Shown: positions 3,001-64,000 of the stretch, one piece after another
How the letters are laid out: every line of letters begins with the position of its first letter
Numbering within the stretch: position 1 is the stretch's first letter
DNA from: a virus
Lineage: Duplodnaviria; Heunggongvirae; Uroviricota; Caudoviricetes
Virus record (IMG/VR): IMGVR_UViG_3300032893_000003
Coordinates: 14,633 to 78,632 of that record
Length of the DNA stretch: 64,000 bases
Reading direction: 5' to 3' (one strand)
Notes under the pieces: generated by a model
The model's input: the letters and a program-made list of their open reading frames with translations, nothing else
Databases searched by the model: none
Told to the model about the DNA's origin: nothing
Made by a program: the position numbers and the translations under genes

Positions 3001-4686
3001 CACAATCTGAAACTCTTAGGCGATAAGTATGCTTATGAAAGTGGATTTACTTCCACCATCAGCGACACTATTGCCGATACTAAAACGCGAGATGCCCTCT
3101 TTAAAAAAGCTGATATCGAGGCAGATAAGCTCAGAAAAGCGATGAAGCCTGGTCTTGAGCGCGACAACAAAATCGCAACGCTTTACGAAAAGGCAGCGCA
3201 AGACTCTTATCAAAACATCAAAGAACAGCTCAAGAAAAAGGACTCAAGCTTTTACCACATGGTTGAATCTGGCGCGCGTGGGAAAAACGAACAGCTCATG
3301 CAAATGGTCTCAGCTCCAGGGATCGTGATGGATGCAAAGAACCACAAAGTTCCAGTACCTCTTAAGAAGTCCTATGCCGAGGGAGTCTCGACTTCCGATT
3401 ACTTCATGTCAGCCTATGGTGTTCGTAAAGGGATGATGGACAGATCCATCCAAACAGAAAAACCTGGCGCTATGAACAAGGACATCATGGCGGCTGCAGC
3501 TGACCACATTGTTCACGAAGTTGATTGCGGCTCTAAAAAAGGTGTGACGCTACCGCTATCAAGTTCGGATGTGCAAGACCGAGTTTTGGCGCATGACCAG
3601 CACGGACTTGCGCGCAATACACCCGTCACTCCACAAGTGGTTGCCGCTCTCACAAAAGCCGGAATTAAAGACGTGACAGTCAGAACCCCTTTGCGTTGTA
3701 ATTCCTCTAAGGGAGTTTGTGCCCACTGCTTTGGTAAAGATGAATTTGGTCAGCTTCCGCAAGTGGGAGACAACGTCGGAGCCAAATCGGGCCAGACAAT
3801 GACAGAGCCTGTAACGCAATTCGTCATGAAAACTTTCCACACAGGCGGCGTATCGACAGGCGCACCCACAGCCAAAGGCTTTGAACGCGTCAGCCAGCTT
3901 CTCAATATGCCTAGCTACGTGTCTGGTGAAGCAGCCCTAGCCCGCCACAAAGGCCGCGTGACAAAGATCTCTAAAACGCCAGCCGGAGGTTATGATATTC
4001 AAGTTGAGGGAACTCCCCACATCGCACGCCCCGGGCTCACACCTCAAGTTAAAGTTGGGGATGTCGTCGAGGCTGGAGACAAGCTCACAGACGGTGTTAT
4101 TCGACCCCAGGAGCTTTTAAAACACAAAGGAATGCTCGCTGCCCAGAATTACATCGTCGATGAGCTTAAGAAAACCTACGCCCAACAGGGCGTTCCCATG
4201 CAGCGAAAAGTCTTTGAAACCGTAGTTAGAGCCGCCACAAACAACACTCGAGTTGTCGAAGCTCCTAAGCACACAGACTTTTTACCAGGGGATATTATCC
4301 CCTATACCACAGCGCTTCATTACAATGAGACCAGGAACGTGACAGTTCCGACAGACTCGGCTGCCGGGTATTTCTTAAAAGAGCCTGTTGGCAAGCTACC
4401 ACAGTTTCACGAAGTGACCCCAAAAGATGTACAATACCTAAAAGATATGGGCCATAAGCAGCTCTCTGTCTTAAAAGATCCGCTTATCCATGCGCCCATT
4501 ATCAAAGGTATAACCGAAGTTCCAGCCTTCCGTAAAGACTGGATGGCGCAGCTTGGATATCGCTACTTAAAACGCACACTCACTGAGGGTGCGGCGCAAG
4601 CTTGGAAATCGAATGTCGAAGGAGCACATCCGGTGCCAGCATTCGCTTACGGAGCAGGTTTTGGTAAAAAGAAGGAGCACTACTAA
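1..4686 (+). CDS. rpoBC: Multisubunit-type RNA polymerase, beta C-terminal half fused to beta' (5'-truncated by window)
   Basis: Frame 1 is open from base 1 (VPFLKNDQGNRTMM resembles beta IPFLEHDDANRALM). Beta motifs DKLAGVHGNKGV and PDILLNPHG. Beta' motifs VLMNRAPSLH, catalytic NADVDGD, CNSSKGVCAHCFG and trigger loop EPVTQFVMKTFHTGG, with no stop between the halves. Confidence 0.95.
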   Translation, partial: FSSAKVDYVLPHPTALFSHSTNLVPFLKNDQGNRTMMAAKMLGQAIPLVNREAPNVQTMSPSGRTFHEEFGERFSLKAPAEGTVTAVTPDYIKIGNEKITLYNNFPLNQKTSVHHQPLVKVGDKVRKGQLIADSNYTQGGTLAVGKNLNVAYLAYPGYTFEDGIVITESAAKKLAAEQTYKHAFKLEAGKKETNLRRFLSYYPNTMTKDMMGLYDPEGVIKKGSVVKPGQILIAGLNYAAHSPENMTLRRLSRTLTIPWSNAAVKYTGEFEGVVTDVVKRGDEINVFVKAIEPARESDKLAGVHGNKGVITKVIPDSEAPRTKDGRIPDILLNPHGIIGRINMGQLYESAAGKIAQKTGKPYVVTNFDEHETNKKVEADLKKHGLSDTEEMFTADGKSLGHVNFGSPYILRLAKTGKTGFSARMPGQGYDVNRQPVKGGEEGSKALDQLTFFSMLSHGAKKNLLDAHVKSERNDEYWHAIEMGKIPPTPHTTFAFDKFMSLLRGAGINADKRGPEFVLAPMTDETTKKLSKGKISEFNFLYGKNLKEIKGGMFDTQITGGMNGTNYAHIELPERMPNPVFENAIKSLANIKQPQYDALVAGTMHLGKDGRLSQTPSPGSKTGGPAIAELLKNVNPETEIPRLKLLLKKTTNESDINKINKKIRYLAALRDMGTSADEAYTRKLVPVVPPQYRPIQEIQNRGLVVSPPNYLYQSLGILSEAHDHPVMKFLDDSEKTQLRAETYKASRALAGLEDVYTRGKSQPTRGFISQITNATPKQGFFLDKLITKKQDIAGRGVIVNGPDLHMDEIGIPEKMAKTIFRPFTVREFTTAGYKPDMARKEIEAGTPLAKRMLEAAMSKRTVLMNRAPSLHKFSVMAFKPRLTEGLAVRVPPLVFKGYNADVDGDTVTLHVPVSEEAIRESTKMFPSNNLWKPGTGELMTTPSQEAAIGLYFLSQSEKGRGVINNALPPKYHVTSTLSARAAKELYNKIAKEDPVKFPNIVHNLKLLGDKYAYESGFTSTISDTIADTKTRDALFKKADIEADKLRKAMKPGLERDNKIATLYEKAAQDSYQNIKEQLKKKDSSFYHMVESGARGKNEQLMQMVSAPGIVMDAKNHKVPVPLKKSYAEGVSTSDYFMSAYGVRKGMMDRSIQTEKPGAMNKDIMAAAADHIVHEVDCGSKKGVTLPLSSSDVQDRVLAHDQHGLARNTPVTPQVVAALTKAGIKDVTVRTPLRCNSSKGVCAHCFGKDEFGQLPQVGDNVGAKSGQTMTEPVTQFVMKTFHTGGVSTGAPTAKGFERVSQLLNMPSYVSGEAALARHKGRVTKISKTPAGGYDIQVEGTPHIARPGLTPQVKVGDVVEAGDKLTDGVIRPQELLKHKGMLAAQNYIVDELKKTYAQQGVPMQRKVFETVVRAATNNTRVVEAPKHTDFLPGDIIPYTTALHYNETRNVTVPTDSAAGYFLKEPVGKLPQFHEVTPKDVQYLKDMGHKQLSVLKDPLIHAPIIKGITEVPAFRKDWMAQLGYRYLKRTLTEGAAQAWKSNVEGAHPVPAFAYGAGFGKKKEHY

Positions 4687-8202: not shown

Positions 8203-8229
8203 CTTATACCCGAAAAAGGGCTATTTTAG
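8203..8229 (-). promoter_or_regulatory. Phage promoter motif copy (CTAAAA-N15-TATAAG)
   Basis: Nearly identical to the copy at 24625-24651. Confidence 0.6.
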
Positions 8230-13834: not shown

Positions 13835-14758
13835 ATGACAAATTCTCGCCTGCCGTTCCACAAGCATCTTAAATGGCTTATTCTCGAAGGTAACTCGTAC
13901 GAGAATGTCTGCGAGTTTTACGAAAATTTACAGTTCCCAGAGCCCACAGAATCTTATTTCCAGAACCTAAAGGACGATGTTGATAGCCTTCCCATTCCGC
14001 CTATCACAAGGCGCAGGCTCGGGAAAAAAATTTACCACGAAAACGACGTTTTTGTGTGGAAAAAGCTCGATCTTGAAGAGATCTATCTTCATCGACTAAA
14101 AGGCGCTAAATGGAGCGGAGTCTTAAAGATTCTAAATAATCCAATCCTGCGGGTGGCAATTGATTGTTGCCTCATTGCCAGTGTCGACCTTGAGGAGCTA
14201 GGGCAGCTCGTTATCACAGCATACAATACCGAGATCGATGAGAACTCAGCAAAGATATATAAAAAATATTTCTTCGATGCTGAGTTGATGAAGCGAAATG
14301 ATTGGCAGAGTTATCTTAATTTGCTGGCTAGCGATCGCTATACCTATACGCGGGTATTTGCAGCGCTCACAAAGAGCCGTGATGAGGTCTTGCATCTCGT
14401 AGGGATGCCAACCAAGGCACAGTTCGGAACTATGCTTAAAAACGTCATGAACACCGCTCATTACCGCTTTGAGTACTTCGCTAGGCAGAACGGTCCGGAT
14501 GCTCAAGAGCAGGCTAGGAAGTGGGCTAAGATTCTTATGGATGCCGGCGCGAAACATGAGAAGTTTGGGGCTACGGACGCCACAGATTTCGCCAACCTCA
14601 TCCAAACAGAATTCCACTACATAGAAAGCGACATACAAACAGTGACCCCCGAAATGCTCGCCGACGCTAAGCCAAAAGCGCTTGAAAAAGAGCCCGAACG
14701 CAATGTCCCAATTCCTCCTGAAGGCGCAGCGTCAGGCAGACCCGCGAACGACATTTAA
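13835..14758 (+). CDS. Hypothetical protein (position suggests a packaging or small-terminase role)
   Basis: 307-aa helical ORF upstream of the terminase block; function inferred from synteny only. Confidence 0.55.
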   Translation: MTNSRLPFHKHLKWLILEGNSYENVCEFYENLQFPEPTESYFQNLKDDVDSLPIPPITRRRLGKKIYHENDVFVWKKLDLEEIYLHRLKGAKWSGVLKILNNPILRVAIDCCLIASVDLEELGQLVITAYNTEIDENSAKIYKKYFFDAELMKRNDWQSYLNLLASDRYTYTRVFAALTKSRDEVLHLVGMPTKAQFGTMLKNVMNTAHYRFEYFARQNGPDAQEQARKWAKILMDAGAKHEKFGATDATDFANLIQTEFHYIESDIQTVTPEMLADAKPKALEKEPERNVPIPPEGAASGRPANDI

Positions 14759-45877: not shown

Positions 45878-46369
45878 TTAAGGCTTCCTCGCATCTTCGA
45901 GTGACGTGAAACAATCGACGGCTAAGTTAAGTGTATAGCGCCGTACAACCCCTAAAAAAAGATCGATGTCCCAGCGACCTTTGCGCCTCTGTATTGTAAA
46001 GCACTTTGTAGGGTCTAGCACTTCTTCGAGTGTGTAGTTGGACTTAATTTCTTTCATAACTACAGCTACATCTGGGAAGCCTATTAGAACTGCTGCGTGA
46101 TTTGAGGTGCCACGAATATTGTTTAGAAAGTCTGCTTGTTTAGCAGATACCTCGTGCTTTAGGCACTTCGATTCTTTCCGCTTGGGGAGTTCTCTTACGA
46201 ACTTGGCTTCGATAGCGTAAAAGCCGCCTTGATGAGATACACAGAAGTCTGGAAGGCCGACAACAAACCTATCGGTATTCGTCCAGATGACGGCTTCTTT
46301 GTGGTAATCTTTTAGATCACGTCTGAAGCTACTTTTAAAATCACTCTCGTTCGTCGCCAAGTTCCACAT
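45878..46369 (-). CDS. PD-(D/E)XK nuclease (VRR-NUC/resolvase-like)
   Basis: GLPDF...FYAIEAKF...VSAKQADFL. Confidence 0.75.
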   Translation of the reverse strand: MWNLATNESDFKSSFRRDLKDYHKEAVIWTNTDRFVVGLPDFCVSHQGGFYAIEAKFVRELPKRKESKCLKHEVSAKQADFLNNIRGTSNHAAVLIGFPDVAVVMKEIKSNYTLEEVLDPTKCFTIQRRKGRWDIDLFLGVVRRYTLNLAVDCFTSLEDARKP

Positions 46370-46736
46370 CCGCTGGTAAGATATTGAAACATCGAACTCT
46401 TACGCGCTCTTCGCCGTTAATACTGTCGGCGCGCATATAGCCTTCGACCAAGTACTCGTTGCCAACGATTAGGTCATTTAAGTAGGCGTCCACATTCTTA
46501 CCCAATACTTCATAGGTAAAAAAATTCTCGTGAAGACCTGGGGAACCGTCAGCTAAAGTGAAATGTTCATCAACTCTTAAAGTGAATGAGAGGATTTTTT
46601 TATAGTTTTTTAGGGTGATCACTTTGGGCTCATCAACCAACACGCCTGTGTGCGTCGTTTTGTTAATGTGCCGTCTAACCTTGCGTCGCATAAATCTCCT
46701 CATGGGCACACGGGGCACCCATGAGGATAGTATCAA
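46341..46736 (-). CDS. Second SSB/PriB-like OB-fold protein
   Basis: GVLVDEPK...SFTLRV...GNEYLVEGYMR; start uncertain. Confidence 0.55.
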   Translation of the reverse strand: MILSSWVPRVPMRRFMRRKVRRHINKTTHTGVLVDEPKVITLKNYKKILSFTLRVDEHFTLADGSPGLHENFFTYEVLGKNVDAYLNDLIVGNEYLVEGYMRADSINGEERVRVRCFNILPADVELGDERE

Positions 46737-55018: not shown

Positions 55019-55346
55019 TTGTAACCTCTACTGGCGCGGTTTCTTTAACCTCTGGTGTCGGTGTCGGTACAGCCGGCTCCGTTACAGCCACTTCCTCAGC
55101 TTGTTTAAGTAATGCCGCCAACGCCACAATATTGTTAGCGAAATCTATGTTTTGCTTAACAATCGCGCCGAACGTGTCGGAAGTATTCTCCAAAAAAATT
55201 GGATCAGCGCTCTCCGATGTCTCCGGATCTGGCAAACACATACCATAGCCGCCACCAAGAAGAATGTATGTGTCCCACCCGCCGTTATCGTTAGGAATGC
55301 GCCCTTGCCACAAAACTTTAAGGCCAACAAGTTTACTAAAATCCAT
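55002..55346 (-). CDS. Hypothetical protein
   Basis: AGAGGG RBS. Confidence 0.65.
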   Translation of the reverse strand: MDFSKLVGLKVLWQGRIPNDNGGWDTYILLGGGYGMCLPDPETSESADPIFLENTSDTFGAIVKQNIDFANNIVALAALLKQAEEVAVTEPAVPTPTPEVKETAPVEVTSEAPK

Positions 55347-56340
55347 CTGGAATCCCCTCTACCGCCTTCATGACATCATTGAACGGCGTTTTTAAAATTG
55401 TCGTCCGATCCTCGTCGAATCCATAGACTACGGTATCATTAGTCGCAGTTTCGCGCTTCTGAATAATACCAAAAACGTCGCCATGCAAGTTATCGATATA
55501 ATGGATAAAAGCGGCTTCCGGACACGCAAAGGTCATAGGACTTCCCCACCTTTTAAAGCGATGGTGGGACAACACTACATGCATCATGTGGTCACGTACC
55601 TCTTCCGGTACGCCTAGTTTGTTGCAGGTCTCAAGGATCCGCGCCGCTACCATCGGAATATGACCGACTAAAATGCCTTGCAGCCGCTTCTTAAATCCAG
55701 GCTCTGTGCTGTACTCATAGATCTTGCCGAAGTCATGGAACATAACCCCGAACATACAGAGGTCTTTGTTAAGCGGCTTTTTAAAGAAGGGGAACTCTAA
55801 AAGCTTTTCGCATATTTGAAGCATCTGGAGAGTATGCTCTAAAAGCCCGTGCAGGAATGCATGATGCATTCCGGTCGCGGCCGGCGCTTTACGAAATAGC
55901 TCAGTTGACTCTGCGTCGAACAAACTCGCAGCAACCGATTTAAAAGTTTCGCTCTCAAATCCAGTCAAATATTTTTGAAAGTCGGTCCACATCTGCTCAG
56001 GATCGTAATCCGAAGTTTTAAAGAAATCTTTCTCGTCAAATTTAATCTTCGGGTGGCTAAAGCCATTTAGTTTTCCAGACAGCTTTTCTTTATATTCTGA
56101 AACTTGGATGCTCACTTCGTAGACTGCGCCGGCTTTCATGCCCAGGCAAGTGCCCGCATCATCAAGGGTGTGGTTCCACACATTGGCTTCGAGCGTGCCT
56201 GTTTTGTCAGCGAGAACTGCGACGACAAACGGTTCGTTGTTTGATGCTTTATACTTTTGGTTGAGCGCCTGGATCAAGTATAATTCTGTTACCGTCATCC
56301 CCGGTTTTAGGTCTTTTATCCATACCCTTTGATCGTTCAT
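55336..56340 (-). CDS. OB-fold plus HD-domain 3'-5' exoribonuclease (YhaM/Cbf1-like)
   Basis: LADKTG..ANVW, PAATGMHHAFLHGLLEH, FHDFGKIYEY, SHH, IDNL. Confidence 0.85.
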   Translation of the reverse strand: MNDQRVWIKDLKPGMTVTELYLIQALNQKYKASNNEPFVVAVLADKTGTLEANVWNHTLDDAGTCLGMKAGAVYEVSIQVSEYKEKLSGKLNGFSHPKIKFDEKDFFKTSDYDPEQMWTDFQKYLTGFESETFKSVAASLFDAESTELFRKAPAATGMHHAFLHGLLEHTLQMLQICEKLLEFPFFKKPLNKDLCMFGVMFHDFGKIYEYSTEPGFKKRLQGILVGHIPMVAARILETCNKLGVPEEVRDHMMHVVLSHHRFKRWGSPMTFACPEAAFIHYIDNLHGDVFGIIQKRETATNDTVVYGFDEDRTTILKTPFNDVMKAVEGIPDGF

Positions 56341-60137: not shown

Positions 60138-60632
60138 TTAGTTAATGACTTGAAGAGTCTTTCGGTCATACCACCAACTTCGCCAATATTCTTGCGGCCA
60201 TTTTTTCAAATGGACCTTCGTAATACAGCGCATTTCATTGGCAGCTTTAACTGCTTTTTGAATGTCATAAAAAGGAAACCATATAATAATGACCTTCTTA
60301 GTGACATAGCTCGTGGCACGAAGTTTTTCCTCTTTTAAACAAAAAACTTCCATGGGAATAGCGTTGTCCGGCCCGCCCCACCATTTTACAGGCTTTGAAA
60401 CATCCAAGCTATGTGCTGCATATTCATAAACCGTTCCATCCTCCCAATCCATGACGACTTTCGACGACACCGCTTTTGGCTGCTCATCCATGCTGTCAAG
60501 ATCGTACTCCTCAATAGAGTATGACGTGTTAAAGCCGCCAACCCATTGGACTGCGAGCTCTTCTTTTGTAAATACCCGCGCGACGCGGTAATCGGAATAT
60601 TCGCCTGATGTAACTACCCAGCATTTAGCCAT
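60138..60632 (-). CDS. Hypothetical protein
   Basis: N-terminal SGEYSDY motif common in phage ORFs. Confidence 0.7.
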   Translation of the reverse strand: MAKCWVVTSGEYSDYRVARVFTKEELAVQWVGGFNTSYSIEEYDLDSMDEQPKAVSSKVVMDWEDGTVYEYAAHSLDVSKPVKWWGGPDNAIPMEVFCLKEEKLRATSYVTKKVIIIWFPFYDIQKAVKAANEMRCITKVHLKKWPQEYWRSWWYDRKTLQVIN

Positions 60633-61071
60633 TGGGAATCCTTTCTCTTACGCGATCATAAATAACAATGCTTCCAGCAACAGCCAGGTTGAGAGAGAAC
60701 GTACCCGGGAGTCGCACTAAGTGATGACATCTGGCCAGAACTTGTTCTGGCAAGCCATGGTCTTCGGCACCTAATAGATAAATAGCCCTGTGCGGATGCG
60801 AAAACTTCTCGATAGATATGCCCTCAGGTACTAACTCTAAGCCAACAAGTTTACAATCGCGCGGAATATTTTCGTAGAATTTATCAAACGATTCGTACTC
60901 AAAAAGTGGCGTGTGCCTCGTGGCTTTAACAGTGTCAGATGCCTGGTTGCGGTATCTGTGACCTATTGTAGCTAAAAATTTTGCGCCAAGAATGTGAGCG
61001 GTACGCCAGAGGCTACCGACATTAATGGAGCGTTTGGGGTGATATACAGCCACCCCGAAATAGCCTCTCAT
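60625..61071 (-). CDS. SpoU/TrmH-family RNA 2'-O-methyltransferase
   Basis: NVGSLWRTA, LGAEDHGL, SLNLAVAGSIVIYD. Confidence 0.9.
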   Translation of the reverse strand: MRGYFGVAVYHPKRSINVGSLWRTAHILGAKFLATIGHRYRNQASDTVKATRHTPLFEYESFDKFYENIPRDCKLVGLELVPEGISIEKFSHPHRAIYLLGAEDHGLPEQVLARCHHLVRLPGTFSLNLAVAGSIVIYDRVRERIPNG

Positions 61072-62071: not shown

Positions 62072-62932
62072 TTAAGCAGCTTGCGGAAGTTGTGCAGTCG
62101 GCACAGTGGCAGGTTTTTTAGCACCGCTGGTGGCTGGAAGCCGGCGCAGAGTGTAGAAGTCATCAGCGTACATTTCCATGTAAGCGTACGGCAAGAAGCC
62201 ATAGCCCGCTTGACCCCAAGAAACGCCCCAGCTATTTCGGAAGATGAACCACTGGTTCATATCATCATAGCCAACACATAGAAGCGCATGACCACCTTGA
62301 ATGGTATCGCCACGGCCGCCAGGCATTGGGATAATACCAGTCATTGCCGCCTGCTGGCTCAGAAATGAGCTGTAAACAGGGATACCAAAAAGGTGCGGGA
62401 ATCCATTAGCGAGGCAACGTTTAAGCTCCGTAAGGTCACTGAGTTCGTAAAAGAACGGTACCTTGTGATGGTAAGCCTCTCCATAAGCCTGAGAAGTCGG
62501 GCAGCGCAGGAGATTCGATTGCAGGTAGGGCCATGTGCTTTCGCGGGGTACGCCTTTTGATTGGACGGCTACGCAAGCATCTCGCAGTGTCGTGGCACCG
62601 GCATCCTGTCCAGTTGTCCCTTCAAGCGCGCGCTCATTCCAGTAAATAAAAAGCCGCGAAACGGGATCAAACTTGCCAGGAACATATTCCTGAGGTTGTG
62701 CGCCAGGTAGCGGAAGCTCTTGAAGTTCAAGAAACTCCACAGCACCGGCTGTGGCATTCCCACTACAAGAACCCATTTGCAGTTGGTCCATGACGGGAGA
62801 GCATTTGGGTCTTAGATCCATGCTCGCCGGCAAGATGAGGCGCGGAACCGCAAGCTCGATGTGTTTATATTGTTTGTCGTTTGCATCCTTAAGCGATGGT
62901 CGCCAGTTAAGGACACGCCCTTGAACTACCAT
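62072..62932 (-). CDS. Papain-like C1A cysteine peptidase
   Basis: DQLQMGSCSGNA, GGHALLCVGY, FRNSWG. Confidence 0.92.
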   Translation of the reverse strand: MVVQGRVLNWRPSLKDANDKQYKHIELAVPRLILPASMDLRPKCSPVMDQLQMGSCSGNATAGAVEFLELQELPLPGAQPQEYVPGKFDPVSRLFIYWNERALEGTTGQDAGATTLRDACVAVQSKGVPRESTWPYLQSNLLRCPTSQAYGEAYHHKVPFFYELSDLTELKRCLANGFPHLFGIPVYSSFLSQQAAMTGIIPMPGGRGDTIQGGHALLCVGYDDMNQWFIFRNSWGVSWGQAGYGFLPYAYMEMYADDFYTLRRLPATSGAKKPATVPTAQLPQAA

Positions 62933-62989: not shown

Positions 62990-63066
62990 TGGAGGTCGTA
63001 GAGGGATTCGAACCCACGTAAAACGGATTTAGAGTCCGTCAGCATATGCCGCTCTGCCATACGACC
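62990..63066 (-). tRNA. tRNA with CUA anticodon (amber suppressor), tRNA-Cys-like body
   Basis: GGTCGTA/TACGACC acceptor stem, U73, encoded CCA; anticodon arm ACGGA-CTCTAAA-TCCGT; TTCGAAT T-loop. Confidence 0.9.
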
Positions 63067-63414
63067 TTATTTAGATTGCAAATCCTTGTCTGACTTGAGG
63101 CCTCTAATAGACCTTATGATCGTGCTAGAAAGGTGCGCATTTTTGGGATCACACACGAAAAAGACAATCGGAATTTTAATCCCGTAGCTTTCATACCACG
63201 TTTTGAGGCTTCGCTCATATTCAAAGTCCAGAATGTTTCTTAAGCCTCTAACGATGGCATCGTACGGATTTTTTGCCAAATAGTCTGACAAAAGCCCCGT
63301 CTCTTTAGTCACCGTTAGGATATGGACTTCATCAAAGACCTTCTTTGCTTGCTGGTAAATGTCTTCGTGCCCCTCGTGCCAGGGATTAAAAGAACCTGGA
63401 TATAAAGCTCGCAT
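63067..63414 (-). CDS. Short CoaD/PPAT-like nucleotidyltransferase
   Basis: YPGSFNPWHEGH, IVRGLR..DFEYE, LSSTIIR. Confidence 0.8.
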   Translation of the reverse strand: MRALYPGSFNPWHEGHEDIYQQAKKVFDEVHILTVTKETGLLSDYLAKNPYDAIVRGLRNILDFEYERSLKTWYESYGIKIPIVFFVCDPKNAHLSSTIIRSIRGLKSDKDLQSK

Positions 63415-63771: not shown

Positions 63772-64000
63772 TTACTTTACTTGAGCACTTAGCCAGGCGT
63801 CAACAAAGCCATTGCCCTGCTGTTCTTTTGTTAGTTTTATGTCGCGCGCCTTAAGCTGCGCTCCGCGGGATTTACTGATCGCAAGCACAGCCGCCACGTG
63901 GGGAGTGGCCATAGAAGTCCCATCCCATGTCGCAAACCCGCCCGGGATCGTTGATCTAACGGCAACCCCTGGAGCAGCATAGGCTATCTCCGGACCGAAA
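63772..64000 (-). CDS. Subtilisin-like S8 peptidase, C-terminal fragment (runs off the window)
   Basis: Manual translation: AAPGVAVRSTIPGGFATWDGTSMATPHVAA...GNGFVDA. Confidence 0.9.
   Translation of the reverse strand, partial: FGPEIAYAAPGVAVRSTIPGGFATWDGTSMATPHVAAVLAISKSRGAQLKARDIKLTKEQQGNGFVDAWLSAQVK

Follow-up and report, generated by a model that had tools for sequence, protein, structure and literature searches.

A well-formed CUA tRNA with discriminator U73 in a phage genome that stops at TAG

Phage-encoded tRNAs that suppress stop codons are already known, including from phages which keep the standard genetic code (Borges et al., 10.1101/2021.08.26.457843). As a rule they are regarded as tools or forerunners of recoding that insert glutamine. 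For 180 phage suppressors the published isotype predictions are Gln in 69%, Trp in 19%, Ile in 10% and Tyr in 1% of the cases (PMC10879173). Here we describe a tRNA with the amber-type anticodon CUA, in the following named tRNA1, from a stretch of 64,000 nucleotides (the window; positions 14,633 to 78,632 of the IMG/VR record IMGVR_UViG_3300032893_000003, assigned to the Caudoviricetes). The window is part of a single contig of 175,168 bp with a GC content of 46.8%, which is rated by CheckV as a 100% complete virus record; the genome of this source phage is referred to as G000. New in comparison to the systems described so far are the Cys-like body of tRNA1 with its discriminator U73, the pair of unlike suppressors to which it belongs, and the absence of a target for UAG decoding from the complete genome as well as from its relative G001.

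Within the whole window ARAGORN identifies one tRNA, which is encoded on the minus strand at positions 62990-63066 (genome positions 77622-77698), is 77 nucleotides long and has the anticodon CTA. It is also the sole Rfam match in the 64 kb. The tRNA model RF00005 is matched over its full length (model positions 1-71) with 50.8 bits, compared to a gathering score of 29 (E = 6e-8). The acceptor stem comprises seven base pairs (GGUCGUA/UACGACC), which gives G1:C72, G2:C71 and U3:A70. U8, G18G19, the T-loop GUUCGAAUC, U33 and a purine at position 37 are all present in sequence and fold, two nucleotides occupy positions 8-9, the D- and T-loops are canonical, and the T-loop agrees with the elongator consensus GUUCRAAUC. 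The variable region is short (4-5 nucleotides). The first-pass annotation of the window had described the anticodon loop CT-CTA-AA, G1:C72, U73, an encoded CCA end and a short variable loop, all of which are confirmed by the sequence, ARAGORN and Rfam. With its CUA anticodon and encoded CCA end, tRNA1 is an elongator tRNA of the bacterial type and is intact.

Some irregularities are seen in the stems. The D-stem consists of three pairs with G13/A22 unpaired, the T-stem contains a U50-U64 mismatch, and the junction of D- and anticodon stem (position 26) has one nucleotide extra, which appears in the ARAGORN drawing as a sixth pair (G-U). Folded by minimum energy, the unmodified RNA does not give the cloverleaf (z = -1.3), which is common for tRNAs and was given no weight. 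ARAGORN labels tRNA1 as tRNA-Pyl. This assignment was rejected, because the label stems from the anticodon alone and tRNA1 shows none of the marks of tRNA-Pyl, namely a variable loop of three nucleotides, a small D-loop without G18G19, a single nucleotide between acceptor and D-stem, and a T-loop without the T-psi-C consensus.

The genetic code of the source phage was determined from the coverage of the genome by a greedy set of non-overlapping open reading frames (ORFs), calculated for each code. Under code 11 the set covers 92.5% of the genome, and the value falls to 91.4% if TAG is read as sense and to 91.0% if TGA is, so that the comparison of coding densities which the first-pass annotation had suggested comes out for the standard code. 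As a positive control, the unrelated genome G010 (described below) rises from 85.6% to 92.7% and from a mean ORF length of 198 to 311 amino acids once TAG is read as sense. TAG is the stop codon of 46 of the 254 ORFs (18%) in G000; among ORFs of at least 80 amino acids it closes 34 of 214, on both strands and in all regions. Genes supported by families or orthologues end exactly at TAG, among them a GH108 endolysin, a YhaM-like RNase and several ORFs of the structural block. Each of the six TAG positions cited before (7185, 11529, 16522, 37753, 38266 and 40036) is a TAG codon at the end of an open frame; these frames are 91-214 codons long.

The closest relative that could be found is G001 (IMGVR_UViG_3300037156_000269; 175,117 bp), with 106 reciprocal best hits to G000 at a mean identity of 54%. 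It is likewise a standard-code phage (coverage 92.1%, TAG stop in 46 of 251 ORFs) and carries one CUA tRNA. For several structural-block ORFs the alignment with the G001 orthologue reaches the TAG and stops there. A TAG-recoded phage (code 15-like) was rejected on the grounds that there is neither a gain in density nor a TAG within coding sequence conserved with G001. The source phage uses the standard code, and the initial observation of a well-formed amber-type tRNA inside a TAG-terminating genome is upheld.

tRNA1 is accompanied by a second CUA tRNA. This tRNA2 (genome positions 79490-79563, 74 nucleotides, G73) is located just beyond the window on the strand of tRNA1, 1.8 kb upstream of it, and directly follows a gene for a PTH2-like peptidyl-tRNA hydrolase. 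The relationship of its 106-amino-acid product to Pth2 is not detected by Pfam alone; a profile built with 13 homologues matches solved Pth2 structures (2zv3, E = 1.3e-5, and four other Pth2 entries). The layout upstream of tRNA1 is thus a small protein gene, the PTH2-like gene and then a tRNA-CUA, and tRNA1 itself does not directly follow the hydrolase gene as tRNA2 does, being three genes further downstream. Homologues of the hydrolase were found in 42 IMG/VR loci, where they are mostly followed by a tRNA-CUA. The CUA tRNA at this place in G001 (L009:2232-2306) carries U73, and its body is quite unlike that of tRNA2 (L015:3491-3564), while the two proteins encoded upstream are 58% and 36% identical between the phages. 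The occurrence of unlike tRNA bodies beside similar flanking proteins indicates that the tRNA was replaced while the presence of a CUA tRNA was kept.

The hydrolase-linked CUA tRNAs are found in three settings. In the first, the genome is recoded. At four loci (L051, L057, L074 and L087) the hydrolase gene has an in-frame TAG within its conserved body (3001-3294), and judged from these sequences the respective phages read TAG as sense; G010 with its recoded late genes (see below) belongs to this setting as well. In the second, the hydrolase gene is gated by amber: at five of 43 loci examined (L069, L082, L084, L085 and L086) a UAG is located at codon 3-7, and no later start precedes the conserved LYVLVR strand. 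The third is a plain standard-code setting, neither recoded nor gated, to which G000, G001, G006, G007, G008 and the complete G009 belong; except for the source phage itself, these are five further carriers of a U73-type CUA tRNA on the standard code. G009 (loci L104-L112) is 176.5 kb long with terminal repeats, encodes 31 tRNAs and ends 42 of 259 ORFs at TAG. Two adjacent CUA tRNAs with U73 and G73 follow its hydrolase gene at 46344-46418 and 46424-46499. As G009 shares just 9 of 267 proteins with the source phage, the module of hydrolase and tRNA-CUA appears to be mobile.

Among 37 distinct hydrolase-linked CUA tRNAs the discriminator is U in 13, G in 12, A in 9 and C in 3 cases; for the 25 with an encoded CCA end the respective numbers are 8, 10, 5 and 2. 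U73 is commoner than in the sense tRNAs of the same loci (13/37 versus 9/65, p = 0.02), where it marks Gly and Thr. The bodies of the 37 tRNAs are very diverse. Phages with two CUA tRNAs carry unlike types, which are U73 and G73 in L079/G009 and G73 and U73 in the source phage, with L086 and L008 as further cases.

Evidence that tRNAs of this type are able to decode comes from G010 (IMGVR_UViG_3300034685_000200, loci L113-L119), a contig of 126.5 kb and 64% completeness with TAG-recoded late genes. Up to 27 in-frame TAGs occur per late gene, and the genes at 5-44 kb are free of them. The sole CUA tRNA detected, at 69063-69139, has U73, C1:G72 and the same anticodon arm as tRNA1, although another one may fall in the missing part of the genome. 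Recoded G010 thus suggests that U73-type CUA tRNAs can decode UAG. None of the PHROG or Pfam families covers its TAG-bearing genes, and usable homologues of them are almost lacking. A near-identical database homologue was rejected as a guide to the meaning of TAG in G010, as Q had merely been translated in at the TAG positions.

We then looked for genes of the source phage which depend on UAG decoding. Calling ORFs with TAG as sense yields 82 that contain a TAG. For the ten candidates with sizeable parts on both sides no PHROG match spans the TAG, and by translation they are either neighbouring genes, the second of which begins directly behind the stop with a start of its own, or non-coding frames. 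An in-frame run-on to the following called ORF occurs after 3 of 46 TAG stops and 11 of 137 TAA stops, hence without any excess after TAG, and the distance to the next stop does not differ between TAG and TAA/TGA (p = 0.39). The scan of the whole genome for a start codon followed by a TAG within 12 codons and a long open frame revealed junk frames only. The PTH2-like gene itself has a plain ATG start with a stop upstream (reading ...Y*RRCK-MSRRLFVLVR), as is also true for G001; the early UAG is absent and the amber-gated hydrolase switch was therefore rejected here.

The comparison of TAG stops with G001 was made on called ORFs only. A few alignments, concerning four shared TAG stops, run beyond the shared TAG. 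Conserved extension was rejected for them, as the similarity comes from a following gene that begins in a different frame, from a promoter-like CAAAAA-N15-TATAAG that overlaps the stop codon, or from a hairpin of a terminator. One such stop at window positions 8203-8229 (minus strand) and three others shared with G001 are either part of A-rich motifs resembling promoters (C/TAAAA-TAG ... TATAAG) or immediately precede terminators, and it is probably because of these elements that they stayed TAG. By these tests, UAG decoding is required for no gene of the source phage. Of amber-interrupted genes elsewhere in the genome, whose rescue had been put forward initially, no example was found across the whole 175 kb, and programmed read-through or gene fusion likewise lost its ground.

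The amino acid with which tRNA1 is charged can be approached by comparison with known tRNAs. The best matches among 50,697 phage records are tRNA-Cys(GCA) of the Pseudomonas phages Milchi and Astolliot and tRNA-Asn of the Providencia phage PSTCR6. If the anticodon is masked, tRNA1 agrees with the Milchi tRNA-Cys at 59 of 71 positions (83%), with tRNA-Asn at 55 of 69 and with cysT of E. coli at 52 of 68 (76%); the rest of 204 tRNAs score lower. Anticodon stem, variable loop and the 5' T-stem are common to tRNA1 and the Milchi tRNA-Cys, and the D-loop and anticodon stem resemble cysT. No similarity matches to tRNA1 were found in all E. coli genomes, with 16-nucleotide matches only in K-12.

Six sense tRNAs and a transfer-messenger RNA (tmRNA) are encoded in G000 at 87.6-89.5 kb. 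A short-armed 'Leu-like' tRNA(UAA) at genome positions 88039-88116 has D-loop (GGCAUA), anticodon-stem and T-arm sequences in common with tRNA1 (52/71). Judged from this similarity, a common descent of both tRNAs inside the phage is possible.

Bacterial tRNA-Cys is recognized by U73, G2:C71, C3:G70, the anticodon G34 C35 A36 and core determinants, which in E. coli are G15:G48 with a 13:22 mismatch (PMC9976931 Table 1); U73 and GCA are named as the foremost elements for cysteinyl-tRNA synthetase (CysRS) (PMC5389517; PMC4536326). tRNA1 has U73 and G2:C71. In place of C3:G70 it has U:A, and of the anticodon nucleotides A36 alone is kept, G34 and C35 being replaced in C34 U35 A36. G15 faces C48 in an ordinary Levitt pair and not G48, and the G13/A22 mismatch is present. 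Amber variants of tRNA-Cys are charged, but poorly, according to PMC4536326 and to Normanly et al. 1986 as quoted in PMC5389517. A tRNA-Gly (U73, G1:C72, C2:G71, G3:C70, C35, C36) was rejected, since tRNA1 has U73 and G1:C72 only, and tRNA-Asn is disfavoured by its requirement for G73. Cys would therefore be the best single guess for the isotype, at near one in three, and Gln or Lys charging driven by the anticodon would be the main alternative. The Cys-like body proposed in the first-pass annotation thus stands as the best available reading (U73, G2:C71, a phage tRNA-Cys(GCA) as nearest relative); charging with Cys stays conjectural, as C3:G70, GCA and G15:G48 are lacking.

Since U73 types are missing from the published isotypes, the class of U73 suppressors appears to be undescribed. 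That U73-type CUA tRNAs form a second identity class of natural phage amber suppressors, which would be charged with Cys (or Gly/Thr) and not with Gln, seems unlikely. If true, there would be natural non-Gln amber suppressors with cysteine or another residue and ambiguous decoding of UAG, phages with G73 and U73 types would read UAG with two amino acids or with a host-dependent one, and TAG in G010 would mean something other than glutamine. The acceptor identity of phage amber suppressors is in any case far more varied than the published Gln/Trp picture.

With a probability of roughly one half, we favour the reading that tRNA1 is a working-type UAG decoder, which serves as a second, differently charged 'key' of the mobile UAG-decoding module and has no 'lock' in this genome. 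Genes for a release factor, CysRS, or glutaminyl- or glutamyl-tRNA synthetase (GlnRS/GluRS) were not found in the phage genome, and tRNA1 would be charged by a synthetase of the host. The best guess for this enzyme is CysRS, which would use U73 and G2:C71 and would be less efficient without G34 and C35; GlnRS or lysyl-tRNA synthetase (LysRS), acting via U35, would be the main alternative. Once charged, tRNA1 would compete with release factor 1 (RF1) and read UAG. As there is no gene with an internal in-frame UAG or under the control of one, tRNA1 would act in the source phage by general partial read-through of UAG stops (16-18% of the phage ORFs, plus host ORFs), or it would have targets outside the genome. 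tRNA1 would then be a spare key without a dedicated target in the genome, while the lock in other phages would be the amber-gated hydrolase gene or the recoded late genes. Two keys with the different discriminators G73 and U73 probably secure charging in different hosts or by different synthetases. What makes the case worth reporting is that an unlike pair of amber suppressors is kept without visible target in a complete genome with a normal share of TAG stops.

Several observations weigh against this reading. The U-U mismatch in the T-stem and the extra junction nucleotide could reduce the activity of tRNA1. Three of the six bacterial Cys determinants are lacking, and tRNA-Asn is nearly as similar as tRNA-Cys. 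Second stops are no closer after TAG, while efficient suppression would extend about one sixth of the phage proteins. In an exhaustive homologue search the TAG columns of G010 gave two informative cases, which are aligned to V and A and are both variable. Finally, no orthologue of tRNA1 is present beside the homologues of the neighbouring protease gene in G001 and 19 other loci (4 viral and 16 metagenomic in all).

The last point belongs to a series of searches for relatives of tRNA1. Loci around homologues of the CoaD-like neighbour gene contain no tRNA of the tRNA1 type. Scanning IMG/VR for the exact anticodon arm revealed two unrelated CUA tRNAs and chance matches only, and an anticodon-free pattern of arm and T-stem was found neither in IMG/VR nor in 185,579 species genomes. 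tRNA1 is located in a variable block of accessory genes that is missing from G001. Given the lack of an orthologue and this variable surrounding, it may equally be heading for loss.

It is doubtful, but still a serious possibility, that tRNA1 is an idle remnant. The CUA tRNAs would derive from an amber-gated or TAG-recoded ancestor or donor, their targets would have been lost, and tRNA1 would be intact but useless and drifting towards loss. This would agree with the absence of any target from the genome, the absence of tRNA1 and its accessory block from G001, and the T-stem mismatch and extra junction nucleotide. It is opposed by the intact cloverleaf, T-loop, G18G19 and CCA end. Furthermore, G000 and G001 both keep a hydrolase-linked CUA tRNA despite wholly different bodies, which looks like replacement under selection and unlike decay, and several unrelated standard-code phages retain such tRNAs. 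If tRNA1 is idle, the case sets a bound to the reading of 'one key, one lock' in related phages.

A function apart from decoding is improbable. tRNA1 could be a decoy or substrate for a host defence that targets tRNAs, a mark for RNA processing in the operon, or an uncharged tRNA which together with the PTH2-like hydrolase releases peptides at UAG when RF1 fails. CUA tRNAs are indeed tightly tied to a peptidyl-tRNA hydrolase fold, the phage has its own tmRNA, tRNA1 is part of a counter-defence-type gene block (NAMPT- and PRPP-synthetase-like), and the discriminators vary as freely as though it mattered little which amino acid is involved. However, TAG inside conserved coding sequence in G010 and four other loci indicates that tRNAs of the tRNA1 kind decode, and tRNA1 has every feature of an elongator tRNA.

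The early step towards recoding which the first-pass annotation had considered is quite improbable by now. In such a scenario the suppressor comes first and in-frame TAG codons follow, a route proposed by Borges et al., who observed a TGA suppressor in a phage that keeps the standard code and is related to recoded ones (10.1101/2021.08.26.457843), and some carriers of the module are in fact recoded (G010 and the four loci with TAG inside the hydrolase gene). That model begins from low GC and rare TAG, whereas TAG is not depleted in G000 and makes up 18% of the stops at 46.8% GC. TAG stops are kept between G000 and G001 about as well as TGA stops (10/22 and 14/22). G001, at about 54% identity, is in the same state with standard code and CUA tRNA, from which the condition seems old and stable. 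The tRNA type moreover belongs to a widespread module, which is also present in recoded and amber-gated phages.

Very improbable is a role in programmed read-through or gating of particular phage genes, by which extended isoforms, fusions or an amber-gated switch would arise. It is suggested by the five loci with an early in-frame TAG and no later start in the hydrolase gene, as well as by the four TAG stops common to G000 and G001 with some similarity beyond. The hydrolase gene here and in G001, however, starts at an ATG with a stop upstream, the similarity beyond TAG belongs to next-gene starts, promoter-like motifs or terminators, run-on is no commoner after TAG than after TAA, and the systematic scan for early TAGs gave junk frames. 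An artefact, in which a sense tRNA would have received a wrong anticodon by sequencing or assembly, or the sequence would resemble a tRNA by chance, hardly comes into question: tRNA1 stems from a single metagenomic assembly, but its score extends across the full tRNA model, CUA differs at two positions or more from the sense anticodons that come closest to it among those expected on a body with U73 (GCA, NCC), CUCUAAA is the usual loop among the collected phage CUA tRNAs, and CUA tRNAs also occur elsewhere in the same genome and in G001.

The coordinates of tRNA1 and of its neighbours are summarized in Table 1. On the minus strand the gene order is a 107-amino-acid protein, the 106-amino-acid hydrolase, tRNA2, an S8 subtilase, a DUF3307 protein, a CoaD/NMNAT-type gene, tRNA1 and a papain-family protease, with a SpoU methylase and a YhaM-like exoribonuclease further on. 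Genes for NAMPT-like and phosphoribosyl pyrophosphate (PRPP) synthetase-like proteins are located upstream. The CoaD model matches the product of the shortened gene in two stretches with the middle absent; this protein is possibly an enzyme that was trimmed or has degenerated, encoded close to genes for the salvage of nicotinamide adenine dinucleotide. tRNA1 follows one protein gene at 0 nucleotides and precedes the next by 57, and no convincing promoter or terminator was seen beside it. Considering this tight spacing and the lack of adjoining signals, tRNA1 is most simply explained as being cut from a polycistronic transcript.

Table 1. Position of tRNA1, its main elements and the genes in its surrounding (window coordinates; aa, amino acids; nt, nucleotides).
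Feature	Position	Strand	Evidence
tRNA1, CUA anticodon, 77 nt	62990..63066	-	ARAGORN; Rfam RF00005 match 62993-63066
Anticodon CUA (plus strand TAG), 7-nt loop CU-CUA-AA	63030..63032	-	Sequence; ARAGORN anticodon position 35
Discriminator U73 and genome-encoded CCA	62990..62993	-	Sequence; ARAGORN fold
CoaD/NMNAT-type nucleotidyltransferase, shortened, 115 aa; TAA stop abuts 5' end of tRNA1	63067..63414	-	Pfam PF01467 E = 9.6e-12; NCBIfam TIGR01510
DUF3307 protein, 112 aa	63386..63724	-	Pfam PF11750 E = 1e-7
S8 subtilase gene, 3' part; gene start just after tRNA2, outside the window	63772..64000	-	Pfam PF00082 E = 4e-50 on L015:2405-3487
Papain-family (C1) protease, 286 aa; start 57 nt past 3' end of tRNA1; AAGGAGG ribosome-binding site	62072..62932	-	Pfam PF00112 E = 3.6e-13
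SpoU-family RNA 2'-O-methyltransferase, same gene string	60625..61071	-	Pfam PF00588 E = 3.5e-21; NCBIfam RlmB/TrmJ/TrmL weak
YhaM-like 3'-5' exoribonuclease, stop is TAG	55336..56340	-	NCBIfam NF010007 E = 2e-42; G001 orthologue aligned over residues 1-334, up to TAG

The source phage resembles the TAG-recoded ('code 15') crAss-like, Lak and other phages in having a phage CUA tRNA which depends on host synthetases (10.1101/2021.08.26.457843; PMC9523058; PMC10879173), and the module of PTH2-like gene and tRNA-CUA is present in truly recoded genomes as well. In contrast to these phages its genome lacks in-frame TAGs as well as a release factor gene and uses TAG stops at a normal frequency, and the isotypes predicted for their suppressors (Gln, Trp, Ile, Tyr) are not U73 types. 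A stop-codon suppressor under the standard code is also known from the Agate clade described by Borges et al. There, however, it is a TGA suppressor in phages with low GC and almost no TGA stops, which was read as a prelude to recoding, while the source phage has 46.8% GC, common TAG stops and a state shared with a distant relative.

Engineered tRNA-Cys(CUA) are similar to tRNA1 with respect to U73, the CUA anticodon and the Cys-type acceptor end, and according to PMC4536326 (B. subtilis) and PMC5389517, which quotes Normanly et al. 1986, they show that CysRS can still charge CUA variants. They are tRNA-Cys of E. coli or B. subtilis in which the anticodon alone was altered. tRNA1 in contrast is natural, shares 76% of the positions other than the anticodon with E. 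coli cysT, and is devoid of C3:G70 and G15:G48.

The Pseudomonas phage Milchi (PQ464597.1) is of similar size (about 175 kb) and also encodes a CUA tRNA. This annotated suppressor tRNA (CUA, A73; L092:4915-4990) is found 1 kb from the tRNA-Cys, beside an RNA ligase gene. Milchi differs from the source phage in that its CUA tRNA has another body, with A73, and its Cys-type body bears the anticodon GCA. Milchi is cultured, so that amber suppressors of phages with the standard code could be studied on it as a laboratory model.

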